A DNA stretch of 30,802 nt from a virus (Duplodnaviria; Caudoviricetes). The stretch is from the IMG/VR virus record IMGVR_UViG_3300027828_000083, positions 1 to 30,802 of that record. One strand, given 5' to 3'. The position numbers were made by a program, and so were the translations under genes. Shown one piece after another: positions 2,768 through 27,771 of the stretch (the first letter of the stretch is position 1; each line of letters begins with the position of its first letter). The notes beneath the pieces were generated by a model that saw only the letters and a list, made by a program, of their open reading frames with translations, did not search any database and was not told the DNA's origin.

Positions 2768-2813
2768 AAAAAAGAACCCGCCACGCAACTGGTGCAGACA
2801 GTCACGGACGGGC
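2768..2813 (-). terminator. Intrinsic terminator/attenuator upstream of the 209-aa gene
   Basis: Minus strand GCCCGUC-CGUGACUG [UCUGCAC] CAGUUGCG-U-GGCGGGU followed by UCUUUUUU. Confidence 0.7.
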
Positions 2814-2844
2814 TATATATCAGGGTTGCCCCCGATTGGTTCAG

Positions 2845-2873
2845 ATTGTGCTGCCCCGTCTGCACCGGGTCAA
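2845..2873 (-). promoter_or_regulatory. Candidate sigma70-type promoter
   Basis: TTGACC-N17-CACAAT in the intergenic gap. Confidence 0.4.
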
Positions 2874-2888
2874 CAGCCGCATTGTCGT

Positions 2889-3788
2889 TTAGAAAAGCGA
2901 TGTCTGCAACGCTGATTCCCTCTTAGTAACAGCGGATGCCAGATTCTTCCGTGCCTGCTCGTAGTATTCAGGTTTCAACTCGCAACCGTAGAAACGCCGA
3001 GGGTCGTCAATCCGCTTCTTCGTCTTAGGTGACACGCCGCCAATCGACATAAAACCCTCGCTGCCGATTCCAGTGAACGGACTGAACACCAATTCGCCAG
3101 GGTTGCTGAACAACAACACGCAACGCCGAATCACCTCCAATTGAAGCGGGCAAATGTGCTTGGTGTCATCTTCACTCTTCGCCGCTGCTGTGTTCAGTGT
3201 GTCCGTTTCAATAATGTCATCCCAGCAACCCTCCGCCCACTTAATCCAGTCGTTTCGACTGACTTGATTCTTCGTATTTATCGGGACGGCGTTTTCCCCG
3301 GGCTTGCGGAACTTAATCAAGTAGTCCTGAAGCGTGCCCCGCTGACGGCTTCGGTCTGACTCCAGACCAGCGAACTGCAACTCTCTGGAACGCGTCCTGA
3401 TGGCTTGTGCCTGCGGGTTCTTTCTTACGGACCAGTCATACTCGTAAATCAGCCCGCACCGTTCACCGATCCGAATCAGAGTTCCGCGGAAATCATGAAG
3501 ACCCTCGCCTCCAGACCGTTTCATCCTTGGAATCTGGCAGCAGTGAACGACCGCAACCCTGCCAGGCTTCAGCACTCGTGCCAGCCCACGCAGGACAAAT
3601 CCCATGTGAACCTTCGCCTCACCATCCCACCGGTCAACATTCCCCACGTCAGCTTCGCTGTCTGTGTAAGCGTACAACGAAGGGAACGGCGGACTGAACA
3701 CCGACATATCCACGCTTGCAGGAGGCATATCTTCCAGCATGTGCGGGATGCAGTCTCCGTGGAACACATCCCAATCATCAACGTCCAT
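2889..3788 (-). CDS. DNA methyltransferase, N4-C/N6-A family, beta-class motif order
   Basis: Catalytic motif FSPPF near N-terminus, HICPLQ, SAM-binding FSPFTGIGSEG near C-terminus, GCELK. Start placed at ATG 3788 (TGATG overlap); ORF track extends to 3806. Confidence 0.88.
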   Translation of the reverse strand: MDVDDWDVFHGDCIPHMLEDMPPASVDMSVFSPPFPSLYAYTDSEADVGNVDRWDGEAKVHMGFVLRGLARVLKPGRVAVVHCCQIPRMKRSGGEGLHDFRGTLIRIGERCGLIYEYDWSVRKNPQAQAIRTRSRELQFAGLESDRSRQRGTLQDYLIKFRKPGENAVPINTKNQVSRNDWIKWAEGCWDDIIETDTLNTAAAKSEDDTKHICPLQLEVIRRCVLLFSNPGELVFSPFTGIGSEGFMSIGGVSPKTKKRIDDPRRFYGCELKPEYYEQARKNLASAVTKRESALQTSLF

Positions 3789-5263
3789 CACGCAACCTCC
3801 ATACAAGGATGACCAATCTGGCGAAACAATTCCTCTTGCTCACGGGTATCCGATTCAACCCGGTCTGCTTTCCGCAACACGTTCTCAACGAACGGCACCT
3901 CCAGTTCTGTCACTGGAATATGGACATTCAGAGGACGTGTTGAGCCGATACGATTGCTGCGTTTCACGGCCTGATAGAATTCCTCGTATGAATCCTTCAA
4001 GCCTGAAAATACCTGCCTCGTGCATACTTGGAGGTTCAAACCGAACCCTAGAATCTTCGGCTTTGTAATCAGAACCTTCGCTTCGCCCGATTTGAATGAG
4101 TCGATGGCATCCTGTCGTTGTTCTTCCTTTGTGTCACCAGACACAGATACAGCATCCGGGAACACATCCTCCATCATCTTTTGCTCATCGTTGTAATGAC
4201 ACCAGATGATTGTGGATTCATCAGGCCACCCATCGACCATGCTGCGAATCGCTGATGGCTTCGCTGTAGGAATGCCGCCTTTACCTTTGGCAATCTGAGA
4301 CAACTTACCACGCTGACCAATCCCGCCAACCTGATTTGTAATCAGTGAACCTGTCAGCATCTGAGCCGCTTTGCGTTGCTCTGGAGTTAGCTCGATGTGC
4401 TCCACGTGAATATGGATCGGCGGAGTCGTTTCGACATTATCCTTCCACCCATATACTGCGGGATTCGCCAGGAATATCGACCACTCTGCCAAGCTCTTGT
4501 AGAAAGGTTTCAACGCATGCGGTTTCAGTTCCCACCGGTTCTGCGTCTGCCCGCGATTGATGAAATACGTTGCGAGAAACTCGTTGACTGTTCGGCACCT
4601 GTCCAGAAACACAGCATGATTAGCAAACTCAATTCTGTCATTCGGTGCCGGCGTGCCAGTCGCGCACAATTTCCACCTGACACCTCGCCCCATCTCAATC
4701 AGCCGCGTCCCCCACGCTCCGTAATGGCTCTTGAGCATTGACGACTCGTCGAGAATCAATCCAGCCAGTTCACATCGCGGGAGTTCGTCACGGATGGATT
4801 CATAGTTTGTGATTCCGATGCCGCTGCCTGACTCCAGCCACTCTGGCAATTCCGCTGCTGTCACTCGACTGACTGGAAGAGAATCGCCATACCATCTCCT
4901 CGCCTCGTCAATCGTCTGCCGCACAACCATCAACGGGCTGACAATCAACACCTTCCCATCAGCCACAGCATGCTTTGCGAACTCCAGCAGAATCAAAGTC
5001 TTACCAAGTCCGCAATCAGCAAACACCGCATACTTGCGTTTCTGAATCGCAATGCGGGCAATGTCTCGCTGGTAGTCGAATAAATCGGGATGCAGGTCGA
5101 CCGCTGCTGTTCCTCGTCGCTCCACTGCAATGCCAAGTTCGTCAGCAAACTCATCAGGGACGAATGCCCGCGAACCCCTGAAATGATAGAGGGGAAGATT
5201 CCGCACCTTCAGGAAGCGGCGATAGCAGTCCGCAGACGATGTATCGAAGTCAATGCTAATCAT
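3788..5263 (-). CDS. SNF2-family helicase/ATPase
   Basis: DCGLGKT, ILDESS, ATGTPAPN, GFGLNLQ, QAVKRSNRIG. Start 5263 (alternative 5284). Confidence 0.88.
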   Translation of the reverse strand: MISIDFDTSSADCYRRFLKVRNLPLYHFRGSRAFVPDEFADELGIAVERRGTAAVDLHPDLFDYQRDIARIAIQKRKYAVFADCGLGKTLILLEFAKHAVADGKVLIVSPLMVVRQTIDEARRWYGDSLPVSRVTAAELPEWLESGSGIGITNYESIRDELPRCELAGLILDESSMLKSHYGAWGTRLIEMGRGVRWKLCATGTPAPNDRIEFANHAVFLDRCRTVNEFLATYFINRGQTQNRWELKPHALKPFYKSLAEWSIFLANPAVYGWKDNVETTPPIHIHVEHIELTPEQRKAAQMLTGSLITNQVGGIGQRGKLSQIAKGKGGIPTAKPSAIRSMVDGWPDESTIIWCHYNDEQKMMEDVFPDAVSVSGDTKEEQRQDAIDSFKSGEAKVLITKPKILGFGLNLQVCTRQVFSGLKDSYEEFYQAVKRSNRIGSTRPLNVHIPVTELEVPFVENVLRKADRVESDTREQEELFRQIGHPCMEVA

Positions 5264-5264
5264 C

Positions 5265-5606
5265 TCAATACACCTTCCCGCCATGCCTCGCAGGCCGCCT
5301 CTGATTCGCTTCCATCTTTGCCATCAACGCACCACCGAGATTCAGCCCGAGGAACTGACAGGCATCCATGATGCGAATCACACAATCCGCAAACTCAATC
5401 TCCGCGTTGCCGAACTCCGGGCAGTGCTTGTCAGGCGGGTTCCCGTTGCGAAACGCTTCCAACGCCTCGCTCAGTTCCGAGTGCATCAATGCAATCAACT
5501 CCGCAGGATTCCGTTCCGTGCTGCCGTCGTACCATCCTTTGTCGATGGCCGTTTGATGGATGTCCATCTGCAACCGGTGCAGACAATCTCGCATGACTTC
5601 GCTCAT
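5265..5606 (-). CDS. MazG-like nucleotide pyrophosphohydrolase
   Basis: LIALMHSELSEALEAFR ... EIEFADCVIRIMD ... KMEANQRR; ATG 5606 overlaps upstream stop (ATGA) with GGAGG SD at 5611-5617. Confidence 0.82.
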   Translation of the reverse strand: MSEVMRDCLHRLQMDIHQTAIDKGWYDGSTERNPAELIALMHSELSEALEAFRNGNPPDKHCPEFGNAEIEFADCVIRIMDACQFLGLNLGGALMAKMEANQRRPARHGGKVY

Positions 5607-6079
5607 TGAACTCCTCCAATCAAATACGCGTTGAACCTCACACCCACAACCTTTTCGAACACGTCCGGCTCCACGTACTCGCGGAACCCCTGAATGATGT
5701 CCATGTAATAGACCGCGTTTTTCGTTCCCTGAAACGATCGGTGCTGGTTTGTTGCCATCACTTCCACATACCATTCTGCCCGCAGTGGATGATGCTTTGA
5801 AAGCCACATCATCCATCCGAGTGCGTTCTGGTGTGGTGATATCTGTGAGTCGCGAGTGTGGTGGTAATGGCACAACGCAATCCCGTTTCGCAAGTCGAAC
5901 CGCAACGCATAATGCTGCCGCGGTACCAAGTGATGCGCATGGCACGGATGCTTCCCGCACACCGCACAACAGTTGTTCCAGTCATCACGCACTGCGAGTG
6001 ACCACAACTGGTCTGCCATCCGCTTGAGTGTGTACTTTGCTGGCACGTCCTTATTGGTCCGCTTCCTACGCTTCACCAT
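5603..6079 (-). CDS. HNH endonuclease, NinG/Rap-like
   Basis: DQLWSLAVRDD..CAVC..HAHHLV.R...LRFDLRNGIALCHYHH; GGAGG upstream of ATG 6079; lies in the recombination cluster. Confidence 0.75.
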   Translation of the reverse strand: MVKRRKRTNKDVPAKYTLKRMADQLWSLAVRDDWNNCCAVCGKHPCHAHHLVPRQHYALRFDLRNGIALCHYHHTRDSQISPHQNALGWMMWLSKHHPLRAEWYVEVMATNQHRSFQGTKNAVYYMDIIQGFREYVEPDVFEKVVGVRFNAYLIGGVQ

Positions 6080-6440
6080 CAGTGTCCTCCATGACTCGTC
6101 GGAACGCATCCGGGTTGTTCACGCAATACTCCTGCATCAATCCCCACGCCACAGTTCGCAACGCTCTCAGTCGCTCAACTTCCGTCAGTCCGACCGTGTC
6201 ACCATAAACCGTCGATACAAACCGAACCGCCCACTCTTTCAGAACACCTACTGTCGGTGTCACCGGGTAATCACTCCGCCGGCAGTAGCCAATCAGGTCT
6301 GGCCCCGTTCGCTTGCCGTGCATGTACGAATTGTGAGGAACGGGGCAAAGGAACCCACGGCCCGCGAATGCGAACATATCGCACTCACGCAGGATGTGTC
6401 CTTCGGGAAGTTTCACGATGTCGTCATCACGTGCGTTCAT
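6066..6440 (-). CDS. Hypothetical protein
   Basis: 124-aa ORF, ATGA overlap with erf stop, GGAGG SD. Confidence 0.65.
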   Translation of the reverse strand: MNARDDDIVKLPEGHILRECDMFAFAGRGFLCPVPHNSYMHGKRTGPDLIGYCRRSDYPVTPTVGVLKEWAVRFVSTVYGDTVGLTEVERLRALRTVAWGLMQEYCVNNPDAFRRVMEDTDGEA

Positions 6441-7009
6441 TTCGTCACCTCCGTTAGTGTAGCTTTCAGCTCTTCCTTACGTTTCATGTAATCCTGCCGC
6501 ACCGCCTGCTGAACAGCCTGCGACTCGTTCTGCAAACCCTCGCCAACCTCCTGCAAGTCTTCCAGCGTCTCCGCTTTTCGGATGCGTTCACGAGCCGCAA
6601 CCACGTCCTTCGGTGGCTTACGTCGGCTCACAGATGCCGCGTCGTCATCCTCATCGGACACAGTCTGCGAGATAGCCGCCAGTGCGTAGCGTCGGAAGTA
6701 AGTGATGGCGCTGCCCATCTTTTGCGGGTCGCTGATGTCCACTTCTGCCGCGAGTGTTCCGCAGTCCAAATGCTGGCCGCTTTCATGCAGCAAGATTGTG
6801 AGCAACCGCAATTGGCCGTTCTCGACCGTTGGTGTCTGGATGACACTCAGCCCGTTCGCCGCGAACGCCTCCTGCATCGCCGTGCGAATGCTCTGAAGTG
6901 TCGCGTACCTCGACTTGAAGAACGGGTTCTTCGCGTCTCTCGGTGCTGGCTCAATCATCCCCTGAGCCTTTGCCAGTGCTGCTGCTAGTTCGTTGATATC
7001 GCTCACCAC
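6437..7009 (-). CDS. erf: ERF-family single-strand annealing protein
   Basis: LAAALAKAQ..KNPFFKSRYATL..LLHESGQ..DPQKMGSAITYFRRYALAAI..DEDDDA signature. Confidence 0.93.
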   Translation of the reverse strand: MVSDINELAAALAKAQGMIEPAPRDAKNPFFKSRYATLQSIRTAMQEAFAANGLSVIQTPTVENGQLRLLTILLHESGQHLDCGTLAAEVDISDPQKMGSAITYFRRYALAAISQTVSDEDDDAASVSRRKPPKDVVAARERIRKAETLEDLQEVGEGLQNESQAVQQAVRQDYMKRKEELKATLTEVTK

Positions 7010-7605
7010 TTCACCTCCATAGCTTTCTCAATGCGTTCAATCTCGTCCAACAGTTTCGCCATGCACGCCTCAAGCTTCTCGTGATACTTCGGGTCAGCCT
7101 CCACGCGATACAAAAACGGCGTGAGTCCTTCATGCCACCCGTAGAAGTCACACCACGGAAGCCCCGATATCCACAGCAGGCCCTGCACCTGCGGTTTGTA
7201 CTCATCAGGCATCGTCCCCTCAGCGTGATACTGGATGACCTTCTCAGGCTTCGGGCACTTAATCTCAATCAACCCGCCATCCACCAACCCATCAGGTGAG
7301 CCGCCATAGGCTTCCGTGTGGTCAGGGACAAGGAAACCCACGTCCACAATCTCACGCCCCGTTTCTGCCGTGTAGCTGGCTTTCGCGTGCGGCTCCATCT
7401 CTGTGCCACGCTCCATCCAATATGACGGCGGGGACTCGGTGTAGACGCCCAAACGCTTCGCCACGATTTCCGCTGCGTAAACTGTCGCCTGACTGGCGTA
7501 TGCGCCTTTGGCCGGCGTGCAGAACCTGTAGAACTGTGACGCCGTTGGCCTTGCTCTGAGTCGGTCCCATTGCTCAGACCGCTGAGCTACGTCAATCACT
7601 CTCAT
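7003..7605 (-). CDS. YqaJ/lambda-type exonuclease
   Basis: QRSEQW..R..TAS, MERGTEMEP.A, GGSPDGLV...IEIKCP, Y..QVQ; adjacent to erf. Confidence 0.93.
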   Translation of the reverse strand: MRVIDVAQRSEQWDRLRARPTASQFYRFCTPAKGAYASQATVYAAEIVAKRLGVYTESPPSYWMERGTEMEPHAKASYTAETGREIVDVGFLVPDHTEAYGGSPDGLVDGGLIEIKCPKPEKVIQYHAEGTMPDEYKPQVQGLLWISGLPWCDFYGWHEGLTPFLYRVEADPKYHEKLEACMAKLLDEIERIEKAMEVKW

Positions 7606-7608
7606 TCG

Positions 7609-7917
7609 TTACTCCCTGTTTCTCGCATCGGCAACGCACATCTCCCGAAAGTCTTCCCACTGGTTATCAATCACGCACGCCGCTATCTCATCCAGTATCG
7701 GCCACACGTCCGACTCATCGCGCTTCCGCTCCTCCGCCCCAACGAACCACCGTGACACGTACACGCTCAACCTGTCGCACGTGTCAGGACTGCCGGGATA
7801 GCCCGGAAACGGTCGCTCACCTGTCGCGTACCAATAGTCGATATCGACAAGCAATGTGCCGTAGCCGATTTCTTCCAGTTCGGTGGTGATTGAGCCGCGT
7901 TTAGTCGTCATCGTCAC
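7609..7917 (-). CDS. Hypothetical protein
   Basis: 102-aa ORF tiling the operon. Confidence 0.65.
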   Translation of the reverse strand: MTMTTKRGSITTELEEIGYGTLLVDIDYWYATGERPFPGYPGSPDTCDRLSVYVSRWFVGAEERKRDESDVWPILDEIAACVIDNQWEDFREMCVADARNRE

Positions 7918-8167
7918 TGCCCTTCAGGTCAGCCCATCCCATGTCGTTGTCAATCCACTCAAGGATATCGGCATCCCCAATAAGTTGTCCGAGCGATTCC
8001 CACGGGTCATCGTCAAACAAATCCACGTCATGAGCCCCGAATGTGTGCGCCTCCCACAACTCAAAGGTTGCGCAGTACACACAGCACCCAAAACGCCAGC
8101 GACCAATTCCGTTCAACTTCCAGCGAAACCGCTGTGGAGGTGTGTTTGCATCTGGTTTAGTCGTCAT
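7901..8167 (-). CDS. Hypothetical protein
   Basis: 88-aa ORF, acidic C-half, overlaps neighbours. Confidence 0.55.
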   Translation of the reverse strand: MTTKPDANTPPQRFRWKLNGIGRWRFGCCVYCATFELWEAHTFGAHDVDLFDDDPWESLGQLIGDADILEWIDNDMGWADLKGSDDDD

Positions 8168-8249
8168 CGGAAAAACACCCCTCGCATATCATCACGCTGG
8201 CCACGATTCCGACCGCGATGACACATGCAATTGCTAAGGCTTCATTCAT
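8157..8249 (-). CDS. Small putative single-pass membrane peptide (30 aa)
   Basis: MNEALAIACVIAVGIVASVMICEGCFSDDD*; fills the gap and overlaps both neighbours; below ORF-track cutoff. Confidence 0.55.
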   Translation of the reverse strand: MNEALAIACVIAVGIVASVMICEGCFSDDD

Positions 8250-8562
8250 CGCAGGGAATCTCCACTTCGCGTGTGTTGCCTGTCAAGTGCACGACAGACC
8301 AAACGTCTCGATACTCTGCAACGACTGTCGTGTAACCGATGTACAAGTCGCCCGCACTGTCGCCGTATACAACCTCGTGAAACACCACCGTCCGCGTCTT
8401 CGTCTTGACGGGCTCCACGACAAGGTGTTGTCCCTCTGATGGCGTATCGCCTGGCCACTGCACCGCAGTCCCGTCAGCCTGAACCAGCCACTGGTCTTTG
8501 CCAACCACACCCCACCTCAGAGCCCGATACCCTTCAGGCACTCCCGGTAATTCAACGCTCAT
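8242..8562 (-). CDS. Hypothetical protein
   Basis: 106-aa ORF, ATGA overlap with upstream stop. Confidence 0.7.
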   Translation of the reverse strand: MSVELPGVPEGYRALRWGVVGKDQWLVQADGTAVQWPGDTPSEGQHLVVEPVKTKTRTVVFHEVVYGDSAGDLYIGYTTVVAEYRDVWSVVHLTGNTREVEIPCDE

Positions 8563-8861
8563 AGCACTCTCACCCCGTCTTTAATGTCCTGAACAACTTG
8601 CCGCATCTGCCCGTAACACTCGCCGCAGATGTCTCCCGAATCCACACCCGCCAACGTGCAGAACTGCAACGTCCGGTGTGCCGTCTTCCCGCACTGTGTC
8701 AGCCCTGCCGGTGTCGCGATACACAGCTTCCGTTCTGCAACACTGGCATCGTCTTTGTCTATCGCACGTGCCTGATGTGCTGCGAAGGTTTCCACCATCC
8801 GAAGGTGCCCAAACATCGCCACAAGTTCCTCGTGTTTCGTTCTGCGTCCTTTGACTGGCAT
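8559..8861 (-). CDS. Hypothetical Cys-containing protein
   Basis: MPVKGRRTK... start with GGAGG/GGAG SD; C-terminal CGEC. The ORF-track extension to 8999 crosses a terminator and structured RNA. Confidence 0.6.
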   Translation of the reverse strand: MPVKGRRTKHEELVAMFGHLRMVETFAAHQARAIDKDDASVAERKLCIATPAGLTQCGKTAHRTLQFCTLAGVDSGDICGECYGQMRQVVQDIKDGVRVL

Positions 8862-8916
8862 CGCTCCACCTCCCGAAAACAGGTGACGACCGCAGCCGTG
8901 CAGCCGCCACCCACAA

Positions 8917-8983
8917 TCACAGACCCGGTTCAGCGTCTTGCTGTTCCTGCGAACCGCTTTCGGTGCCTTCCGGTAGCCTGTGA
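8917..8983 (-). ncRNA. Candidate multi-stem structured RNA
   Basis: Closing stem UCACAGGC(UA)CCGG/CCGG-GUCUGUGA enclosing hairpins ACCG-AAAG-CGGU and CAGC-AAGAC-GCUG; folded by eye only. Confidence 0.4.
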
Positions 8984-8990
8984 CTGGCTC

Positions 8991-9061
8991 AAAAAACACC
9001 GCCCACCCGCTTCCTTCTCTGAGACACCCCTTTCTAAAAATAGTTTTCAGGCGGGCGGTGC
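8991..9061 (-). terminator. Long-loop terminator-like hairpin overlapping the sigma-like gene stop
   Basis: 14-bp stem GCACCGCCCGCCUG (9061-9048) / CGGGUGGGCGGUGU (9009-8996), 38-nt loop, then U-run. Confidence 0.5.
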
Positions 9062-9937
9062 GTGCTCAGAACTCAGTTGTTTCCATCGCGCCCGTTGTGC
9101 ACGTGCTTCAAACTCTTTCTGACGCTTCAACGCCATCCGCCGTCTGGCGTCAATCTCGCTGAAGTCAGGCTCAGTGTCGCAGTATCCGATGAACCGCTCA
9201 GCACGCGTGTAATGTTGCAGTTTCTTGACAGCCACCAGCTCTATCTGCCTCACACGCTCCCGCGTTATCTTCCAGACGCACCCCGCTTCCTCCAGTGTCA
9301 ACGGTTTGACCCCAGCAATCATCCCGTACCTCATTGCGACAATCCCGCCCGTTCGTGCATCCATGCTCAACAGTTCCTGCCTCACCGCTTTCTTCAACTC
9401 TGCACGGGAAGCAATTTCATCCATCGGAACTTCGTAGGTCAGCGTGTCTGATATCGGTTCTGTCGGCACCGACTTTTTGTCAAACAGGCGTGACAAGCTC
9501 CATCGGCACTGATTGACCGTTGCTGTTGTCAGCGAACAGCGGACTGGTTTTTCGCTTATGTTGCGTGCCATCGCCATCCACACCTCGTGAGCGAACTCAG
9601 TGACGCTACCCACTGCCGCTATAACCTTACGCTTCATGAACTGGGCACGCGTGATGCGCCATTTCGCAATGGCAATGATTTCATCGGCTCGCTCGTAGAC
9701 ATCTGCTGGGTGCACCCATTCACCTTTGAATGGTGTTCGCTTCTCCGTGTTGTCTGGAACACCTGCGAGCACTGAATTCTGTCGGTGCTCCTCTTTCCGC
9801 TTGTCAAGTTCTTTCTGGCGACGTTGTTTGATGCGTTCTTCATTGCAGGCATCACAGAAATTCCGTGTCCGCCCCTTCCTGTGAACTGACCGCATCTCAA
9901 TCAGAACGCCGCATGACTTGCATATGACTCGTTTCAT
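9047..9937 (-). CDS. Sigma-70-like protein (clear region 4 HTH) with N-terminal Zn finger
   Basis: MRYGM..PLTLEEAGCVWKITRERVRQIELVAVKKLQ matches sigma70 region 4.2; degenerate region-2-like EFAHEVWMAM..SLTT; N-terminal CKSC...FCDAC. Start moved to ATG 9937 because the ORF-track start lies inside a terminator. Confidence 0.82.
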   Translation of the reverse strand: MKRVICKSCGVLIEMRSVHRKGRTRNFCDACNEERIKQRRQKELDKRKEEHRQNSVLAGVPDNTEKRTPFKGEWVHPADVYERADEIIAIAKWRITRAQFMKRKVIAAVGSVTEFAHEVWMAMARNISEKPVRCSLTTATVNQCRWSLSRLFDKKSVPTEPISDTLTYEVPMDEIASRAELKKAVRQELLSMDARTGGIVAMRYGMIAGVKPLTLEEAGCVWKITRERVRQIELVAVKKLQHYTRAERFIGYCDTEPDFSEIDARRRMALKRQKEFEARAQRARWKQLSSEHAPPA

Positions 9938-9965
9938 CGTTTCGCCCGTGTTTCCATCGCGCACG

Positions 9966-10005
9966 AAAAAACCGCCAGCAAGTGATGCAGCCACTCGCTG
10001 ACGGT
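9966..10005 (-). terminator. Intrinsic terminator/attenuator upstream of sigma-like gene
   Basis: 14-bp stem ACCGUCAGCGAGUG [GCUGCAU] CACUUGCUGGCGGU plus U-run. Confidence 0.8.
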
Positions 10006-10070
10006 CCTATTGATTCGGGATTTCGCCCCGTCTCAGTTCCATTGTTGCCGAGCTGCATTCGACGTGCAAG

Positions 10071-10100
10071 ACTCTACACAGTTCCTCGCAGCCGTTGCAA
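10071..10100 (-). promoter_or_regulatory. Candidate early promoter
   Basis: TTGCAA-N18-TAGAGT with A-rich upstream sequence at the late/early module boundary. Confidence 0.55.
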
Positions 10101-10143
10101 CCCCTTGTGGGTAGTTTTTCGGAAATTGTTCAGCGGTTCGGAA

Positions 10144-13619: not shown

Positions 13620-13900
13620 TACTCATCCGCTTCAATGTCATCCGACACGACAGTCAACGCGGGTGGTTCTGTTGCGTTCCATTCTTCGCGGAACAAATGC
13701 TGGCTGACGTAGTCCGGGTACACCAACGCGAACGCTTCGTCCGGCGTTGTTGCTCCCGTGCATTTTGCGTGCTCAGCGTCAGTGAGTTCCTGTCGCTGAT
13801 ACCGCCCACGAAACGACCCGGGTGATTCCTGCGAACCGTGCAGGATTTCGTAAGCCGCATCACAGTCGCAGCCGTTCGGGAGTTGTGTCTTGTCAATCAT
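13619..13900 (-). CDS. Hypothetical tail-module protein
   Basis: MIDKTQ start with ATGA overlap; stop overlaps the next start (TAATG). Confidence 0.6.
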   Translation of the reverse strand: MIDKTQLPNGCDCDAAYEILHGSQESPGSFRGRYQRQELTDAEHAKCTGATTPDEAFALVYPDYVSQHLFREEWNATEPPALTVVSDDIEADE

Positions 13901-14298
13901 GATGCCACCTGCCTGAATCGAAGTTTGCCGCGTTGCTGCCACCCATTCTGACCGCTGCCGTCTTTCCACGGCGGTTCGTCTGGTTCATACCCGGTGAATA
14001 TGCAGTTTGTGTAGGATGACGAATCACCGCCACCGAGGTCTACCGTCAAAGTTCCCGTCAGTGTTTCCTGCTTCGTGCCAATTGTAGCGATGTCCGCCAG
14101 AAGCAAAGCCATTGTCGCGTAGTTGTAGAAATGAACGTCAATCGTGATTTCGTGTGCGTGCCTCACCCCTGTGAGTTGATATTGACCAACCACGCCGAAG
14201 AATCGCTGGATAGTTTTCCCGACTTCCCATTGTGGCACGATCGGCGTACCGTGGATGCCGGGATCTTCAAACGTGTAACTGTCGAGGGTGATTGTCAT
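13897..14298 (-). CDS. Distal tail (Dit-like) protein (putative)
   Basis: 133 aa, beta-rich, immediately after TMP; assignment is by synteny. Confidence 0.55.
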   Translation of the reverse strand: MTITLDSYTFEDPGIHGTPIVPQWEVGKTIQRFFGVVGQYQLTGVRHAHEITIDVHFYNYATMALLLADIATIGTKQETLTGTLTVDLGGGDSSSYTNCIFTGYEPDEPPWKDGSGQNGWQQRGKLRFRQVAS

Positions 14299-14461
14299 GA
14301 GAATTCATGTCAACGTGTGGGAAGTGCTGTGCCGATTGCTGTCGGTGTACGTGTTTCTGTGTTGTGTCGCTGCTGGCGTTATGGGTATCGGATGGCCGCT
14401 GCACCTTGCCGCCTGTGGTGTGTTTGTGCTGGAAATGTCACGGCAACGTAGCTGCCGGTAG
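14297..14461 (+). CDS. Small antisense membrane protein (54 aa, two hydrophobic segments)
   Basis: MRIHVNVWEVLCRLLSVYVFLCCVAAGVMGIGWPLHLAACGVFVLEMSRQRSCR*; GAGG upstream; fills the gap between TMP and the Dit-like gene. Confidence 0.5.
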   Translation: MRIHVNVWEVLCRLLSVYVFLCCVAAGVMGIGWPLHLAACGVFVLEMSRQRSCR

Positions 14462-16162
14462 TGGTGCCTCTTTCGGTCGCTGCTGTGGTCCCTGAACCAC
14501 CACTTTCTTTTCGTTCTGCTGCTGCTGTATCTGGTTTGCTGCACGCTGCAATTCAATCAGCTCCGCCAATGCTGCGTTGAGTTCCTCACGCCCTTGAGCA
14601 CTGATCTCCTGTTCGAACAGTCCCTTTGCCGTTGTTGCTGACTGCAAGGCAGTAAACACCGCCCTGAACTCATCGCCACCCGATGCAATCTGCCCCTGCA
14701 TCTTTCGACGTTCAAGAGGGATACGTGCTGCGTCGAGACCAGGCAAGTCAATGCGGTTTACTGTGCGGTCGAATATCTCTAACGCCTGACCACGCAACCC
14801 GCGGTCGCCTTCTGTCTCGATGAACTGCCGCTGTGCCGCTCCTCTGTTTGATGCACGAAGCCCCGATGTTGCTGCATCGACACCAGACGCTAGCCCCTCA
14901 TACTCGCCAGCCGCCTCATCAATGCCAGTGATTTTGTTCTCGGCTTTTGCCAACCACCCCATCGCCCGCTCGGACCCGCTGACCAGCTCCACCTTCCCGA
15001 TTTTTGTTTCTGACTCTCTCAGGGTGTCGATGAATTGATTCCGCAGTCCTTCGTTCTGCCGCATCATCTGTTCACGCTCTTCGAGCGACCGTGTCGAGGT
15101 AAACTGACTGATCAATGCTTTTGAGACAGTTGCCTCAGACCCGTCTTTCAGCGTTGCCCTTTCTTGCGGAATAAACTTGTCCACATCCGACACGTATTGT
15201 CGCAGACCGGTCGCTGTTACTGAGCCTGTCTGGTCTTTTGCCGCTTGCGAGAACACTGCCGCATGTTCGAGAGCCTGCTCAGTCGTCATCGCGTCGACGT
15301 TCTGCCGTTCCGCGGTCGCCGCTGCCAATGCTCCACCAATTGCCTGAGCAAACTGAGCCGGGTCGTCTGCCCGCACTTCTGATAACACCTGGCTCATTTG
15401 CCCTAAGGCACCCTCGAAGTTGTCTGAGCCTGCTAGTGAGGTGATATCAAGTGCGGCACCCGCGTAAGCGTTAGCGGCCTCAGCATCACCAGCGGACAGC
15501 CTTAGCGCCGCTCCAGCAACTTTACCAGCTTCTTCGAGGTCTTTCGCACCCGCGCTGATGGCGTTGGCAATCAGATTCCCATAACCCTCCTGAGTCGTAC
15601 CCGTCTCCACCGCACCAGCACGGATCATGTCCCGCGCTTTTCCGATGTTGGCGGCGCCGATGTTGGGAGCAATATCTGCAATGACTTGCTCCAGAGAACG
15701 GTTAGTCTGAGCCGCGGCAATCTTCAACCGGTCCGCCTTTTCCAACTCCGCGACAACCATCGACACGGTCTGATGCAGTCCCATCATTCCGGCTGCCATC
15801 TTCGCCACCGAAGTGACGCCACCTGCCGCCGCCGAACGTAGACCCGCCGTCTGCTGATTCACTCCGCCAAGTTCACCCTTCGCACCTTTGAGCGAACTCC
15901 GCAACCGGTCAACCTTCGCACGCTGCTTCTCGAATTCCTTCGTGCCCATCGCCATCCGCTTCAACGCGGATTCGTTGTCCTTCAACTCCTTCTCAAGGGC
16001 AGCAAACGAACCTTCAGCCAACTTCGCCGATTTCTTGCTGGTCGTTCCGGTCTTCTCCAGTTTCTTTTCGGTCTCATCCAGTCGCTTGTTCAGCTTCTCA
16101 AACGCTTTCAGAACCTGCTGCTGCGTGGCGATGTACTCGACCTCAATCTTTTCATTGGCCAT
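14438..16162 (-). CDS. Tail tape measure protein
   Basis: 574 aa, Ala/Gly-rich helical protein with N-terminal coiled coil; follows chaperone-like gene. Confidence 0.8.
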   Translation of the reverse strand: MANEKIEVEYIATQQQVLKAFEKLNKRLDETEKKLEKTGTTSKKSAKLAEGSFAALEKELKDNESALKRMAMGTKEFEKQRAKVDRLRSSLKGAKGELGGVNQQTAGLRSAAAGGVTSVAKMAAGMMGLHQTVSMVVAELEKADRLKIAAAQTNRSLEQVIADIAPNIGAANIGKARDMIRAGAVETGTTQEGYGNLIANAISAGAKDLEEAGKVAGAALRLSAGDAEAANAYAGAALDITSLAGSDNFEGALGQMSQVLSEVRADDPAQFAQAIGGALAAATAERQNVDAMTTEQALEHAAVFSQAAKDQTGSVTATGLRQYVSDVDKFIPQERATLKDGSEATVSKALISQFTSTRSLEEREQMMRQNEGLRNQFIDTLRESETKIGKVELVSGSERAMGWLAKAENKITGIDEAAGEYEGLASGVDAATSGLRASNRGAAQRQFIETEGDRGLRGQALEIFDRTVNRIDLPGLDAARIPLERRKMQGQIASGGDEFRAVFTALQSATTAKGLFEQEISAQGREELNAALAELIELQRAANQIQQQQNEKKVVVQGPQQRPKEAPLPAATLP

Positions 16163-16847
16163 CGTCTTCGCCCTTTCGATGCAGCTTCAACGTAGCAAGA
16201 ACAGTGTCGATGATATGCCGCTTCCGTGTCCACAGATTCAGCATCACAGCAACCTCAGGCGTCAGGCGATAATTGACCCGCAGCAACTTCAGCAGCCACG
16301 TGACCTGCTCAACTGGGTCAACTTCAAACACCATCGACTTCACGCCGAAAGACTCTCCTAGATAGCGGTCCTGCATCAGCTTCGCTTCGTCACACATCCA
16401 CGAGAACTGACGGATAGGCTCCCACCGCATCGACCCGTCGTCGTTGTAAACCGCCCGCGCATCAACCGTATCAGGCGTCGGCAGTATCCACTTCTGCCCA
16501 CCGAATTCGACCAGTGCACCCTCCTGCGTGTAATGCCGACGCAGTTCCGATTCCTTCGGCGGCTTGTCGTTCCAGATGCCGACGTAGTACAGCGGGTTGC
16601 CATCTTCGTCTTTCAGGACCGATGGCTCCCACGTCTGTTCGTCAGGTCGGTAGACAATGCGAGCGTTCTGCGGGGAGGTCCAGTTGCACAACAGGCCGTC
16701 GAGGTCACGCGGCCCCTGTGCCCGGAGCGTTTCCATACCTTCGAACAAGTCACTCAAGTCAGCCCGCTTGGTGATTTGCTGCAACTGGTCCGGGTTCTCT
16801 GACGCCTTTTTCGCATCGACGCCAGGTAGAAATATCTGGAAATGCAC
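16152..16847 (-). CDS. Hypothetical protein, tail assembly chaperone position
   Basis: 231 aa directly upstream of TMP; synteny only. Confidence 0.5.
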   Translation of the reverse strand: MHFQIFLPGVDAKKASENPDQLQQITKRADLSDLFEGMETLRAQGPRDLDGLLCNWTSPQNARIVYRPDEQTWEPSVLKDEDGNPLYYVGIWNDKPPKESELRRHYTQEGALVEFGGQKWILPTPDTVDARAVYNDDGSMRWEPIRQFSWMCDEAKLMQDRYLGESFGVKSMVFEVDPVEQVTWLLKLLRVNYRLTPEVAVMLNLWTRKRHIIDTVLATLKLHRKGEDDGQ

Positions 16848-16859
16848 CGGCCATCCTTT

Positions 16860-17225
16860 TCACACACCGTACACGCAGACAAGCACCTGACAAGATGCCG
16901 TGTTGGCTTTCAGGTACAGCGTTGTCGCACCGCCGTCCAGTTCGAGCAGGTTCGGGAAACTCGATGGCTTGAGCCGCCCGATGTAGCTTCCCGTCGCGTT
17001 GCCGTACTGGACGTAATTCGTCGAGTCGAGGTTGTACAGGTAGCACAGCCCCGGTGTCGTCACGTCGGTGAACGTCAGCGACTCTTCGCTCGTTCCAACC
17101 GCAACAACACGCTTGAACAATTCAACCGCTGACTGGTCGACCTGGATGCGTCCTGGGTTGAAGTCGTCAGGCAGGGAAGAGTTCGCCAACTGCACCCGCA
17201 AGTTCACCGTGATTTCATCAGCCAT
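16860..17225 (-). CDS. Putative virion structural protein
   Basis: 121 aa, beta-rich, in tail operon. Confidence 0.6.
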   Translation of the reverse strand: MADEITVNLRVQLANSSLPDDFNPGRIQVDQSAVELFKRVVAVGTSEESLTFTDVTTPGLCYLYNLDSTNYVQYGNATGSYIGRLKPSSFPNLLELDGGATTLYLKANTASCQVLVCVYGV

Positions 17226-17235
17226 CGTTCAAACC

Positions 17236-18126
17236 TTATGTGATTGCAGACGCTGCCGAAGCTGTCAGTGTCTTGCCCTTGAGTGTGATCGTTGTGGTTC
17301 CGTTGCTGTTGTCAGACGCTTCCATTGACTCGACGGTTTTCAGCCCGGCTGCAAAGGTGATTTTGATGTGCTCGGCAGTACCGTCCGACACATACAACCC
17401 TGAGTCGTCACGTTTTCGAAAGTAGACATTCGCTGCGGTCATTGCCGTCCAGCCACCTGCCGGCGTCGCTTCTGCAAAGTCATCAACCACGATTTCAATC
17501 ATCGGTGCGACTTCCTGAATCGACACAAGAACCGGGTACGGTTGCCCCTTCTCGCGAGACTTCACGACGGTGATTCCCGGAACCACTCGCACCGACTGAA
17601 CGCCCTCCACGTCCGTCCCGTTGAAGTCCACAATCCCGAGGCTGAATTCAGCATTGAACGACTGAGCTGCGAGAGCCTGACCCGTTGACAGTGTCGCCGC
17701 TTTTGTCTCACCGTCGCTGCTGATCCAATGAATGTCACACGTGCAGGACGCCCCCTGTTCCTCATCCTGCGACGCCTCAATGGATGTCGGCACAATCAGG
17801 CAGTTCGAACCGCTGAGAGCGTTGTGGTTCGACCCTGAGGCGAAGAACGCAGCCTGAGACCGTTCCTTGTACGGCACCGTGACAGTCCCGGATGCTACGC
17901 CCAGTCCTGCGGAGATGAATGTGTTGGTATTTAATGCAATCAACGCGGCAAGGTCGGCACTGCTGATTGTCGTGACCTCTTCCGCAGTGATACCAGAAAC
18001 CTGCGATACGGTGGCACCGCCGCTGGTCGTTGCCTGCCGTGTCGTCTGGTTCACACGGTGGCTGCTGTTCGTCACCTGTCGAATGTTCGTGCCGTCGAAT
18101 ACGGCGTCAGCTACAACCACAGTCAT
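17236..18126 (-). CDS. Major tail tube protein (putative)
   Basis: 296 aa, Ser/Thr/Ala-rich, after neck genes. Confidence 0.55.
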   Translation of the reverse strand: MTVVVADAVFDGTNIRQVTNSSHRVNQTTRQATTSGGATVSQVSGITAEEVTTISSADLAALIALNTNTFISAGLGVASGTVTVPYKERSQAAFFASGSNHNALSGSNCLIVPTSIEASQDEEQGASCTCDIHWISSDGETKAATLSTGQALAAQSFNAEFSLGIVDFNGTDVEGVQSVRVVPGITVVKSREKGQPYPVLVSIQEVAPMIEIVVDDFAEATPAGGWTAMTAANVYFRKRDDSGLYVSDGTAEHIKITFAAGLKTVESMEASDNSNGTTTITLKGKTLTASAASAIT

Positions 18127-18127
18127 T

Positions 18128-18610
18128 TCATTTCACCTTGCGTTTGCGTTTTGCTTTGTACTGTGGCGACTTCGCCAACTTCCTGTAATTCCGTGCGGTC
18201 AACTTGGCTTCCTGCCGTCGCTCTTTCAGCGACACCGCTGCGATTTCCTTCAGTTGCCACGCTGCCAGACGATGCTCACGAGTCCCCCGCGTGACCATGT
18301 TGGACTTGTGCTGAGTCGCTGTGATTTTCACCTTCGCCAGAACCGAGTCCCGCAGTTCACCCGTTGCGACGTTTGGCTTCGTGTGCCCGTATTTCCGTTG
18401 CTTCTGTTTCGTGTACTGTGCACTCCGTTTGCGGTATCCGTATCCGCCGCCACCCGGTGAAGTTTCCGGCACGTTTTCGAAGTGTCTCGGAAGCCTGTTA
18501 TCGCGATGACGCTCCATCCATTCGCGGTTCAGTTGACGCAGGATTTTCGCGTGCCCCGCTTTGGTCACACCTTCCCGAGTCAGCGTTGAGCCAATGACAA
18601 CAACCATCAC
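18128..18610 (-). CDS. Neck/tail-completion protein (virion morphogenesis-like)
   Basis: Basic 160 aa; YTKQKQRK...PNVATGELRDSV motif typical of Mu gpG/HK97 gp10-like proteins. Confidence 0.65.
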   Translation of the reverse strand: MMVVVIGSTLTREGVTKAGHAKILRQLNREWMERHRDNRLPRHFENVPETSPGGGGYGYRKRSAQYTKQKQRKYGHTKPNVATGELRDSVLAKVKITATQHKSNMVTRGTREHRLAAWQLKEIAAVSLKERRQEAKLTARNYRKLAKSPQYKAKRKRKVK

Positions 18611-19080
18611 CGCAACCAGACTTCAATCCCAAGAATACACATCCACTCAACTCGGCCTTCGTTCGTCTCCGGGTCAATCCTCCCGGGCTTCAACGGCATC
18701 GACAGGTTCTGAAACATCAACTCACCGCTGCCCCTGACGTTGCTGTTGATACCCGCCAGAATCGACGCAAGCTGTTGCCAATACCATCGACCTTCCGTGC
18801 TGTACGTCAGCCGGTTCGCGTCAGGAATCTCCAGCTCTAACCGAGCCTCAATCATCAACGAACCGGCAATCCTGCCCGCTCGCCATTCCCCAGGGAATTC
18901 CGCGATGTCCAGAATGAAACACGGCGACTCTGACCCTGCGGAATCATCAACGCCGTACTCAAAGATACGCTTCGCAGCTTCCGCCGCTGAACTGGTGCCG
19001 GTAATCGTCTGCCACGCTGACAACTCGCTCAGCATGGTTTTCACGTTCTGCACCGCTCCGTCAATGTCGAGAGCCGCCAT
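18607..19080 (-). CDS. Tail terminator-like protein (putative)
   Basis: 157 aa in neck cluster; synteny. Confidence 0.5.
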   Translation of the reverse strand: MAALDIDGAVQNVKTMLSELSAWQTITGTSSAAEAAKRIFEYGVDDSAGSESPCFILDIAEFPGEWRAGRIAGSLMIEARLELEIPDANRLTYSTEGRWYWQQLASILAGINSNVRGSGELMFQNLSMPLKPGRIDPETNEGRVEWMCILGIEVWLR

Positions 19081-19436
19081 CAGATATCACCCGCCGTCCG
19101 AACCCCTCTCGCCTCGCTGGCATATCGCACGCACGAAACCTCACGTGCCCCATGTTCAACAGGCTTCACGGCCAGAACTTCATACCGCTCATTTCGAATC
19201 AGGAACGCGTCACCAGTCGCGACGGTCACGGCATCATCGACCATGACCATCGCTTTGGTTTGGTATCCTCGCCCACGTTCCTTTTCGAACGTCGGCTGTT
19301 CAATCTCCACGATGGCTGACACCGCCTGACGGTTGCCGCTATCGCCCCCGACGTACCGAATGACCTGCTCAGCAAATTCATCGGTATTCAGGAAGACAGA
19401 AGCAACGTCAGACGCAATCAGCTCACGCAGTGTCAT
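19080..19436 (-). CDS. Head-tail joining (head closure) protein
   Basis: MTLRELIASDVASVFLNTDEFAE..GD...I....YEV pattern of gpFII-like proteins. Confidence 0.75.
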   Translation of the reverse strand: MTLRELIASDVASVFLNTDEFAEQVIRYVGGDSGNRQAVSAIVEIEQPTFEKERGRGYQTKAMVMVDDAVTVATGDAFLIRNERYEVLAVKPVEHGAREVSCVRYASEARGVRTAGDI

Positions 19437-20122
19437 CGCTTGCCCCAGACCTTGACGTAATCCAGAGTGAAGCCGTCCGTGTTCGCGTCGGACGTCTTCT
19501 GAATCTGAGCAAACACCTGAAGCGACCCGGTGTAGTTGCTCATGTCGAACGTCGTTCCCGACGCAACGCGAACAAGAGCACCGTTCCCGTCGTCCATGAA
19601 GAACCGCACGTCACTGGTGCCGTTGCTGAAGTCAATCTTCAGCCGCTTGTAAGCGTTGATGAGAGTCTGGCCAGTCGCAACGTCGTTGTTGTCGTTTGTC
19701 CCGTCATCAGTCTCAACAACCACTGCCGTTGTGCTGTCAGCACCGACAACGCGGAACAACGCAGCCTGAGCAATCGAATCAATCGCGTCGTTACGGTCGC
19801 CAGTCAGCCCGATGGCAAAACTGGTTGTCGCATCGGCGGCAGCCTGGTTCATCTTGACCCGGCATTCGAAGCCCTGAATCTTGTCGATGTCGAATTGCAG
19901 CTTGTCACTCTGAAACAGGCAGACGTTCTGAGCTTCTGCCTGCGAATCAAAGTCGAGAGCAACCTCACCGCTCGATGAACCGTCCACGTAAACGTATGTT
20001 GGCGTTCCGGCGGATGAGGTGTCGGCGATGTCCCAATAGTCAACACCCGCCGGGGATGCTGTCAGGGAACCTGCACCGAAGAAGTCGTCACAGAATTCCC
20101 AGTAGTCTTGAATTCCAGCCAT
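19433..20122 (-). CDS. Putative capsid decoration/minor capsid protein
   Basis: 229 aa, beta-sandwich-like (DDFFG... F.LDYVKVW); strong SD TAAGGAG; directly after capsid gene. Confidence 0.55.
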   Translation of the reverse strand: MAGIQDYWEFCDDFFGAGSLTASPAGVDYWDIADTSSAGTPTYVYVDGSSSGEVALDFDSQAEAQNVCLFQSDKLQFDIDKIQGFECRVKMNQAAADATTSFAIGLTGDRNDAIDSIAQAALFRVVGADSTTAVVVETDDGTNDNNDVATGQTLINAYKRLKIDFSNGTSDVRFFMDDGNGALVRVASGTTFDMSNYTGSLQVFAQIQKTSDANTDGFTLDYVKVWGKR

Positions 20123-20167
20123 TTCAAATTCTCCTTAGCTTGTCTTTCTCAAGGTGCAAGCGACCTG

Positions 20168-20221
20168 AAAAGGTGCGGCTGACCACAACGGCCAGCCGCT
20201 ATCAACTCCGCGTTGCCGCGG
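20168..20221 (-). terminator. GCAA hairpin plus terminator-like hairpin after capsid gene
   Basis: CCGCG-GCAA-CGCGG (20221-20208); GCGGCUGGCC-GUUGU-GGUCAGCCGC (20199-20175) followed by ACCUUUUC. Confidence 0.6.
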
Positions 20222-24578: not shown

Positions 24579-24615
24579 CGCACCAACTCCTGCAATTGGA
24601 CGCCTGAGAAATGAC

Positions 24616-24667
24616 GCGTGCCACACGGCTCAGGATCACCGCTGTTCGGGAGCTACCCTAGACACGC
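24616..24667 (-). ncRNA. Three-way-junction structured RNA leader
   Basis: P1 GCGUGUC/GGCACGC; UA; P2 GGG-UAGCU-CCC; GAACA; P3 GCGGU-GAUCCUGA-GCCGU. Confidence 0.6.
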
Positions 24668-24682
24668 CACGCAAGTCTCGCA

Positions 24683-25027
24683 CTACTGATTCCGTGGTTC
24701 AACCGTCCACGCAAAGTTCGAACCACAACAACGACACTTCACCCGCTGACGTGTGCCGACGCTACTTTCCATCGTCCCGGTGCTCACCGTATCCGGGCAA
24801 GGTCGCTTCTCGCCGAGGTTGCTGCTGCCACACTCACGACACTTATTCACCAAGTGAGAGTTCTCGGCATGGCAGTCCTGGCATTCACGAGTTTGACACG
24901 AACGGCAGGGAGGTGCCCAGTTGATAGGTGCCGCCGGCCTGTCACTCACCGGTGTCCGCAATTCCCCGTTCTCGTTCGTCACGGGCTTCTGCCGTTTCCG
25001 TCGTCGTGGTTTCGCTGGCTGTGTCAT
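24683..25027 (-). CDS. Multi-CxxC Zn-ribbon protein
   Basis: CRSC, CQDC, CREC, R.RVKCRCCGSNF; ATGA overlap with terL stop. Confidence 0.65.
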   Translation of the reverse strand: MTQPAKPRRRKRQKPVTNENGELRTPVSDRPAAPINWAPPCRSCQTRECQDCHAENSHLVNKCRECGSSNLGEKRPCPDTVSTGTMESSVGTRQRVKCRCCGSNFAWTVEPRNQ

Positions 25028-27531: not shown

Positions 27532-27771
27532 TCATCCATTCCATTGGGCCACCTTTTTGCAGACCGCGATGAACTCCTGCTGCGTCATTGTGCCCTTCAT
27601 CTTGTTCATTGCTTTTGAGACGATTTGCACGTTGCTCATCACGTGCTGGCCGCCCTTGCTTAGCGGTGTAATGTGATCCAGCGATGCTGCTTTCGGTGTC
27701 AACTTCTCGCCACTCAATGCACAGCGATACTCTTGCTCCTGAAGCATCCGCATCAGCCCTTTGCCTGACAC
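27532..27771 (-). CDS. Small HNH endonuclease
   Basis: RCALSG..SLDHITPLSKGGQH.MSNVQIV...NKMKG; GTG 27771 with AGGAGG at 27777-27782. ORF track extends to 27849. Confidence 0.85.
   Translation of the reverse strand: MSGKGLMRMLQEQEYRCALSGEKLTPKAASLDHITPLSKGGQHVMSNVQIVSKAMNKMKGTMTQQEFIAVCKKVAQWNG

Follow-up and report, generated by a model that had tools for sequence, protein, structure and literature searches.

We describe here two RNA leaders, A (2768-2909, minus strand) and B (9966-10100, minus strand), in a 30,802-nucleotide (nt) contig of a tailed phage (Caudoviricetes; IMG/VR record IMGVR_UViG_3300027828_000083), which was analysed over its whole length and is called the window below. They represent a real and, by our searches, uncatalogued kind of leader, of which this phage has at least three examples: the loop of a 5' hairpin and the loop of a predicted terminator hairpin are complementary to each other and change together. 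In the reading that we favour, and to which we give a probability of about 0.5, A and B are folded leaders in which the kissing of these two loops gates read-through into early genes, with each leader using its own 7-nt code.

Complementary loops in leaders A and B

A preliminary description of this DNA had noted a mini-hairpin, a long hairpin and a U-rich tail at three sites, here called A, B and C. Both A and B are larger than it reported: each consists of a predicted promoter, a 5' hairpin (H1), the mini-hairpin (H2), a predicted terminator hairpin (H3) and a U tract (Table 1). The mini-hairpins are indeed where they had been placed (2821-2834 and 20208-20221, both with a GCAA loop, and 10016-10030, with a CGAAA loop closed by a G-U pair), a long hairpin does begin within 7-10 nt after each of the three, and the terminator loops of A and B do read UCUGCAC (2798-2792) and GCUGCAU (9991-9985), with UGCAG-containing complements upstream. 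What had gone unnoticed is that each of these complements makes up the 7-nt loop of a hairpin which begins at the promoter's predicted +1. In other words, the 7-nt loop of H1 is the exact complement of the 7-nt loop of H3 in A as well as in B, and the spacing is 67 nt in both. The two sites had been said to have little primary-sequence identity, but they align well across the mini-hairpin and the terminator.

A scan of the window for this complementary-loop pattern, which was designed after A and B had been seen, returned two matches, namely A and B, while 100 shuffled versions of the window gave a mean of 0.03 (three with one match and none with two). H1 starts a few bases past a sigma-70-like -10 box, a proximity that occurs at 0.9% of minus-strand positions, and a promoter-like site stands directly ahead of H1 in all six modules with sequence to examine. 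The predicted H3 has the form of an intrinsic terminator, with 16 bp followed by UCUUUUUU in A and 14 bp ending in six U in B. Between the end of each U tract and the following ATG there are 8-12 nt, and consequently the downstream genes can be transcribed only through H3. Moreover, there are 10 short GNRA or CGAAA hairpins in the window, and only those of A and B are followed by a hairpin with at least five U in 9 nt. The stretches at sites A, B and C all fold better than shuffled sequences (z of -3.09, -3.87 and -3.44, respectively), and better as the minus strand; for the modules, the plus strand folds 11-13 kcal/mol worse. The G-U pairs of the modules likewise fit the transcribed strand and, taken together with this strand asymmetry, indicate a function at the level of RNA.

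That the pairing between the H1 and H3 loops is functional we consider very probable. Covariation, which the preliminary description had suggested as a test, is found precisely here: all seven distinct loop pairs known to us are fully Watson-Crick complementary, with differing letters. A third module of the window's phage, D, lies outside the window, in another assembly of the same phage that reaches about 1.6 kb past position 1 (locus L001, +8802). It has a TTGACA promoter, loops AUGACUC/GAGUCAU and a GAAA mini-hairpin. The ortholog of A in a close relative (L204 and L205, with one sequence between them; 2 of 5 loci from one further search) has the loops ACGUGAC/GUCACGU, the same spacing and an identical mini-hairpin, while the closing pair of H1 is A-U instead of the G-C of A. 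Between A and this ortholog, 2 of 14 loop bases are kept, as compared with 76 of 94 elsewhere (Fisher p 2e-6), and yet the pairing is complete. In a variant of B, positions 9988/9989 and 10054/10055 have changed, turning CUGCA into CACCA and UGCAG into UGGUG, and all seven pairs are intact. This variant comes from one contig spanning both loops in each of two sequencing runs, which may include the source of the window and are not mutually independent as evidence on habitat. Both variants of A and of B are found within the same runs. A more distant phage (L064) carries two modules, with little or no mini-hairpin and with loops GAUCCAG/CUGGAUC and GUGCAU/AUGCAC. One of them lies directly after a methylase gene, like A, and the second also occurs in L116 and in L117, in the latter ahead of a different gene.

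In a matrix of all cross-pairings, the cognate loop pair is the strongest in seven of seven rows, and the loops of D are unable to cross-pair with those of A or B. Since both loops change together in D, in the ortholog of A and in the variant of B, it is the pairing that is conserved and not CUGCA, and this speaks both against a ligand pocket formed by the loops and against a single factor that reads CUGCA. As a side observation from few cases, a 4-nt palindrome occurs in five of the seven loop pairs (A, B, L204 and both of L064), namely UGCA in three of them and ACGU and GAUC in one each, and by it like loops could pair intermolecularly. The mini-hairpin, for its part, is kept in the group of the window's phage with GCAA, GAAA or CGAAA loops, and its role is more likely that of a spacer or of a protection for the 5' end than that of a boxB.

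Table 1. Positions of the elements of modules A and B, of site C and of the first genes behind the modules
Feature	Positions	Strand	Remarks
A, predicted promoter P1 (TTGCAG-17-GACAAT)	2881..2909	minus	+1 near 2874; consensus match only; ortholog TTGACA-16-GACAAT
A, 5' hairpin H1, loop GUGCAGA at 2865-2859	2850..2874	minus	loop and closing pair replaced in ortholog L204/L205
A, putative promoter-like site P2 (TTGACC-17-CACAAT)	2845..2873	minus	overlaps H1; +1 near 2838, at mini-hairpin; ortholog TTGACC-17-CAGAAT
A, mini-hairpin H2, GCAA loop	2821..2834	minus	site 1 of the preliminary description; identical in ortholog
A, terminator-like hairpin H3, loop UCUGCAC at 2798-2792, and U tract	2768..2813	minus	ends about 12 nt before ATG at 2756
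B, predicted promoter P1 (TTGCAA-18-TAGAGT)	10071..10100	minus	+1 near 10064; consensus match only
B, 5' hairpin H1, loop AUGCAGC at 10058-10052	10047..10063	minus	two loop changes in variant contig, matched by two in H3
B, putative promoter-like site P2 (TTGCAC-17-AACAAT)	10041..10069	minus	+1 near 10034, at mini-hairpin; variant nearer to -10 consensus (10044)
B, mini-hairpin H2, CGAAA loop	10016..10030	minus	site 2 of the preliminary description; loop 2 nt shorter in variant
B, terminator-like hairpin H3, 14 bp, loop GCUGCAU at 9991-9985, and 6 U	9966..10005	minus	ends 8 nt before ATG at 9957
Site C, GCAA mini-hairpin and 10-bp hairpin	20170..20221	minus	after capsid stop codon; similar shape, outside the kissing-loop family
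First gene behind A, 209 amino acids	2127..2756	minus	no family found; DEAD-type helicase gene (204-1778) next
First long gene behind B, protein with sigma-70 region 4 domain	9047..9937	minus	precedes recombination/replication block (exonuclease, Erf, helicase, methylase)

A possible gate on read-through and its alternatives

What might such a pairing do? In the guanidine-IV riboswitch (GGAM-1, mepA), according to PMC7736828 and PMC11611296, the loop of a 5' hairpin kisses the loop of the terminator hairpin, hinders formation of the full terminator and promotes read-through. Our first step is modelled on this example. Namely, H1 would fold first, and its loop would capture the H3 loop as the latter emerges from the polymerase, so that the terminator would close less readily and read-through would result, with the mini-hairpin as a compact spacer. 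In an equilibrium model, the transcripts of A, its ortholog, B and D, when cut just past the H3 loop, do fold with the H1 and H3 loops paired (4 of 4). The likeness lies in the complementarity between the loop of a 5' hairpin and that of a terminator, which holds for 7 of 7 module loop pairs. That said, the loops of the riboswitch are highly conserved and needed for the ligand, whereas those of the modules are their least conserved part (2 of 14 bases between orthologs), and the riboswitch is followed by exporter genes, the modules by phage early genes. The modules are also without an Rfam counterpart: in a cmscan of the window at E<=1, a single match was returned (int-alpA, 24602-24668), and none at sites A, B or C, including the families C4, c4-a1b1 and c4-2 that the preliminary description had proposed to check; seven related loci gave no match either. 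A gate on read-through in which the kiss favours read-through is, in our judgement, an even bet.

The second step, which is weaker, concerns what throws the switch; this would be an RNA, and neither a metabolite nor an N-like protein. Short terminated transcripts, coming from P1 or from P2, would offer a free H3 loop, occupy the H1 of newly made transcripts and force termination. The predicted product of P2 in A or B is just such a unit of mini-hairpin and terminator, without H1. The outcome would be negative feedback together with the exclusion of co-infecting phages of the same code, and it would account for the far quicker change of the loops compared with that of their flanks. Indeed, the faster replacement of loops than of flanks in co-occurring strains suggests intermolecular recognition, and the only fitting hairpin loops in the window are the modules' own, which favours the short terminated RNAs, possibly those from P2, as the repressors. 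A self-code of the loops acting in trans can nevertheless be put forward only tentatively. We treat as a conjecture, too, the wider picture of several near-orthogonal, protein-free feedback loops per genome, in which the short product of each leader would shut the gate in trans by its 7-nt code; and that co-occurring strains escape mutual repression by exchanging both loops at once, which is part of the same RNA-gate reading, is conceivable but doubtful.

Heteroimmunity of P1 and P7 comes about via matched base changes. Like the modules as we read them, c4 of P1/P7, CI of P4 and IsrK belong to phage leaders where expression or premature termination is governed by short pairings between RNAs; in particular, a short terminated RNA that acts on its own read-through transcript is described for IsrK of Gifsy-1, with P4 CI as precedent, in PMC4825925. 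Those systems, however, rely on an RNA that is separate or processed and that has two target sites, whereas in the modules both partners are 7-nt loops within a single unit of 80-110 nt from +1 to terminator, present in several copies per genome. We found no separate antisense RNA of the c4/CI type; the minus-strand hairpin loops with UGCAG in the window, which is an incomplete genome, are only those of H1 in A and B. A c4-like three-way-junction fold enclosing H1 and H2 was dropped, as the predicted +1 falls at H1.

A number of points weigh against the gate as we propose it. To begin with, the promoters and terminators of the modules are predictions from consensus matches or folding, and a simple terminator scan listed none of sites A, B and C. 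The complete H3 (-14 to -27 kcal/mol) is far stronger than a 7-bp loop duplex (-6 to -10 kcal/mol), the terminator already wins in three of four modules once 9-12 nt of its 3' arm have been made, and, by rough geometry, the linker lets the kiss and the full terminator coexist (a reach of 9.5-14 nm for a span of 6.7-8.7 nm). Because the finished terminator is so much more stable and because coexistence is allowed, the kiss may not antiterminate at all, and the direction of its effect is something that we infer. The loops of A and B could also cross-pair at 5-6 of 7 positions in this isolate, so that their orthogonality is incomplete, and P2 was seen only in A, B and their variants and not in the three other modules. 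Our searches reached modules in only three groups of phages (the window's phage, the L204/L205 type and the L064/L116/L117 type), and the other loci anchored on a methylase or on Erf showed no convincing one. Finally, no integrase or repressor was recognised, and a lysogenic state is accordingly unsupported.

The alternative that survives best, although we think it has a distinctly smaller chance of being right than of being wrong, is that the modules are stand-alone small RNAs or short leaders of the lambda PR'-6S-tR' kind, with a kiss that only compacts or stabilises the finished RNA, a constitutive terminator, and a protein antiterminator, loaded at the promoter, that would let the polymerase pass. 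Lambda late control, with PR', 6S and tR', is a precedent for such a short leader, and the promoter-proximal position of the modules fits it, as do the strength of the terminator relative to the kiss and a geometry that permits both together. What it leaves unexplained is the wholesale replacement of loops with kept flanks, and no Q-like protein is recognised in the window, which is incomplete as a genome.

A second alternative, which we regard as unlikely, is that other messages are the main targets of the short RNAs, which would pair with them in trans through the H1 or H3 loops as seeds in the manner of OxyS or c4, and that the kiss in cis masks the seed. Terminator loops can pair in trans, as is the case for OxyS (cited in PMC11979758), and a copy of the apical part of A's H3, matching at 18 of 21 positions and with the same loop, does occur in the first codons of a pyrophosphatase-like gene (5570-5590, minus strand); a match as good was reached by 3 of 3000 random 21-mers. 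CUGCAC also occurs in a hairpin before the start codon at 8861, but there, at 8900, it is buried in the stem. Neither of these two sites has support from covariation, and in the sequence searched no such copy was found for B or D, nor for the ortholog in L205.

Thirdly, the modules could be attenuators of the pT181 type, in which the opposite strand yields an antisense RNA whose kiss with H1 allows the terminator to form. In pT181 attenuators, according to PMC3753616, recognition between kissing hairpins decides termination, and changes in the loops alter specificity; both the logic and the loop-based specificity would suit the modules, and a fast change of loops would be explained. On the other hand, the regulator in pT181 comes from the opposite strand, while the matching loop in the modules is the terminator's own. 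No good plus-strand promoter-like site was found ahead of the reversed module at A or D, the one in L204 is weak, and the plus strand folds worse by the amount given above. We hold this explanation to be quite improbable.

The preliminary description itself had proposed phage-wide antitermination by a single RNA or RNA-binding factor, which would recognise either the GNRA mini-hairpin or CUGCA at each of the three sites. In its favour, A, its ortholog, B and D all retain the mini-hairpin stem, and three of these four have a GCAA or GAAA loop; UGCAG is common to the loops of A and B, whose possible cross-pairing leaves a remnant of the idea standing; and site C is the best match in the window, outside the training set, to a covariance model of mini-hairpin plus terminator (R1; 19.5 bits, E 0.001). 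GNRA is, however, the right term for the loops of A and C (GCAA) and not for that of B (CGAAA), the loop of the mini-hairpin varies, the hairpin is reduced or missing in the two L064 modules, CUGCA has been replaced together with its partner loop in D, in the ortholog of A and in the variant of B, and C has neither promoter nor partner loop. The lambda N/nut and HK022 put systems do resemble the modules in being promoter-proximal and in having a small hairpin, the loop of which is GNRA-like in part of the modules. They differ in that the modules contain no boxA-like site and have no N-like protein that we could find, in that the loop is variable, and in that the hairpin stands 7-10 nt from the terminator. 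The boxA-like octamer, searched for in its generally known form, gave 15 one-mismatch matches where 15.1 are expected by chance, none of them within the modules or before site C. To our knowledge, neither nut nor put uses a kiss with a terminator loop.

Nor did the trans-acting candidates named for this factor hold up. The Arg-rich proteins encoded at 24683-25027 and 27753-28469 (121 and 238 amino acids) are Cys-rich with patches of Arg and are found among packaging genes; neither gave a match to N/Nun, and an atlas gave zinc-finger-like leads only. The RNA at 8917-8983 folds well (z of -3.2 together with the next hairpin), but its longest match to the loops is 4 nt, no more than what 59-74% of random 67-nt stretches achieve. 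As the preliminary description had already stated, no N, Q or repressor gene is recognised: scans of the window's proteins against PHROGs, Pfam and NCBIfam gave no match to the integrase, repressor, N (or Nun) and Q families, with the qualification that N proteins are short and divergent and that the genome is incomplete. On this evidence, a single phage-wide factor seems to us highly improbable. Least credible of all is a role at the level of DNA, namely two palindromes with matching inverted 7-bp cores that serve to invert the DNA between them: a core that is free but matching is typical of tyrosine-recombinase sites, but the arms of H1 and H3 have no common motif, the G-U pairs are strand-specific, a U tract ends each module, and among 24 contigs no joint across B was found, although rare forms drop out of contigs.

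Site C, further searches and genomic surroundings

Our favoured reading, loop pairing that gates read-through, extends to A and B but not to site C. The three sites had been taken together as termination checkpoints; A and B stand as candidates, which would rely on short loop pairing, while C is without the defining features. No promoter-like site was found there, and no complement to its loop within 150 nt upstream. Its tail, ACCUUUUC, is a poor U tail and can close a small hairpin of its own, so that the U-rich tail described for all three sites is present in A and B only. With model R1, which was built from four sequences (the four true modules), the score of C is close to the 18.2 bits given by the reverse strand of B. 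Since promoter and partner loop are absent and the score is of this size, C shares a shape with the modules and not their defining feature. Most likely, it either stabilises a 3' end or acts as a partial stop behind the capsid gene.

A covariance model had been recommended for finding further members; beyond placing C first among the non-training matches, R1 found no new member in 93 loci, and its five matches in 151 genomes (from the phylum of a Pirellulales genome) include none with a kissing module. Of 80 methylase-anchored loci, modules were present only in L001 (the same phage) and L064, and 80 Erf-anchored loci, mostly 30-46% identical, contained none beyond the window's phage. DNA patterns of the A and B terminators retrieved only the window's phage from viral contigs (30 loci with 1 true, 5 loci with 1 true and L111 left undecided, and 3 loci with 2 true), and in genome contigs none of their 90 matches had an upstream loop complement. 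In DNA from distant phages, about 0.97 Mb in all, a strict module scan returned no false module, and a relaxed one over all loci (2.5 Mb) gave 24 rows, that is, 17 known modules and 7 weak cases, with imperfect or G-U pairing, which we did not count. In the mostly open-access literature that we covered, which included PMC2864571, PMC5737381, PMC10690425, PMC3753616 and PMC11979758, no description of a phage kissing-loop terminator leader was found; an earlier listing as an unnamed motif is possible.

Other structured elements were seen along the way. L111 (1100-1225) has an extended -10 promoter-like site, a short hairpin and a B-like terminator-like hairpin with a CUGCA loop, the complement of which is in the stem of the first hairpin and not in its loop. 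After the methylase gene of L037, L039-L048 and L050-L052 there is a conserved multi-hairpin element of 150-190 nt, with variable inner hairpins, which ends in a GC-rich terminator-like hairpin. Related phages (L032, L033, L058 and L061) have in common elements of two hairpins and a U tract after a gene with a Phe-Ala-Lys-like tail, and no kissing loop was found in these elements.

As to the phage itself, the window is the whole 30.8-kb contig, and its recognised genes are all on the minus strand. Genes for terminase, lambda-type portal, a protease-capsid fusion and probable tail proteins run from 27.4 kb down to 10.1 kb and are followed by those for the sigma-70 region 4 protein, exonuclease, Erf, HNH, pyrophosphatase, helicase, methylase and a second helicase. 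The capsid matches 5 of 401 genomes, at 30-42% identity only, and cultured phages of several hosts at about 33%, and no host can be assigned. The sigma-like protein has no close relatives, which is why module B lacks an ortholog among the stored loci. A 14-bp direct repeat flanks its gene (9078-9091 and 9949-9962), each copy containing the ATG of a frame of 6-7 codons, and contigs of two runs join 9075 to 9948, as if the gene were missing or replaced in a variant.

Downstream of it, ahead of the recombination genes, 8862-9075 (minus strand) looks like a structured non-coding hub. It opens with a terminator-like hairpin that is long and has a loop of 40 nt; GUGUCUCAGAG in this loop can pair with UUCUGAGCAC, which lies immediately upstream, and the stop codon of the sigma-like gene falls within the hairpin. 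A three-way-junction RNA (8917-8983) comes next, and the last element, ahead of the ribosome site of the gene at 8861, is a 14-bp hairpin that ends in a U-rich tail. The int-alpA match mentioned above (24602-24668, minus strand; 35.9 bits at a gathering score of 35.8, E 5e-4) falls in the gap that separates the gene following terL from the one after it, and a weak promoter-like site precedes the match.

Possible meaning for phage self-recognition

As an on-switch, a kiss with a terminator loop is described for a single riboswitch class, in which the decision rests with a ligand; in the present case, the arrangement recurs at least three times in one phage, without an Rfam family, and its loops vary between coexisting strains in the way a specificity code does. 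If the proposed mechanism is true, it would amount to an RNA-only system of immunity and dosage that is distinct from c4/CI. The units are only about 100 nt long, and the informative base swaps have already been made by nature. Should the code act in trans, the modules would represent a new form of self-recognition in phages and, at the same time, a natural set of orthogonal transcription attenuators.

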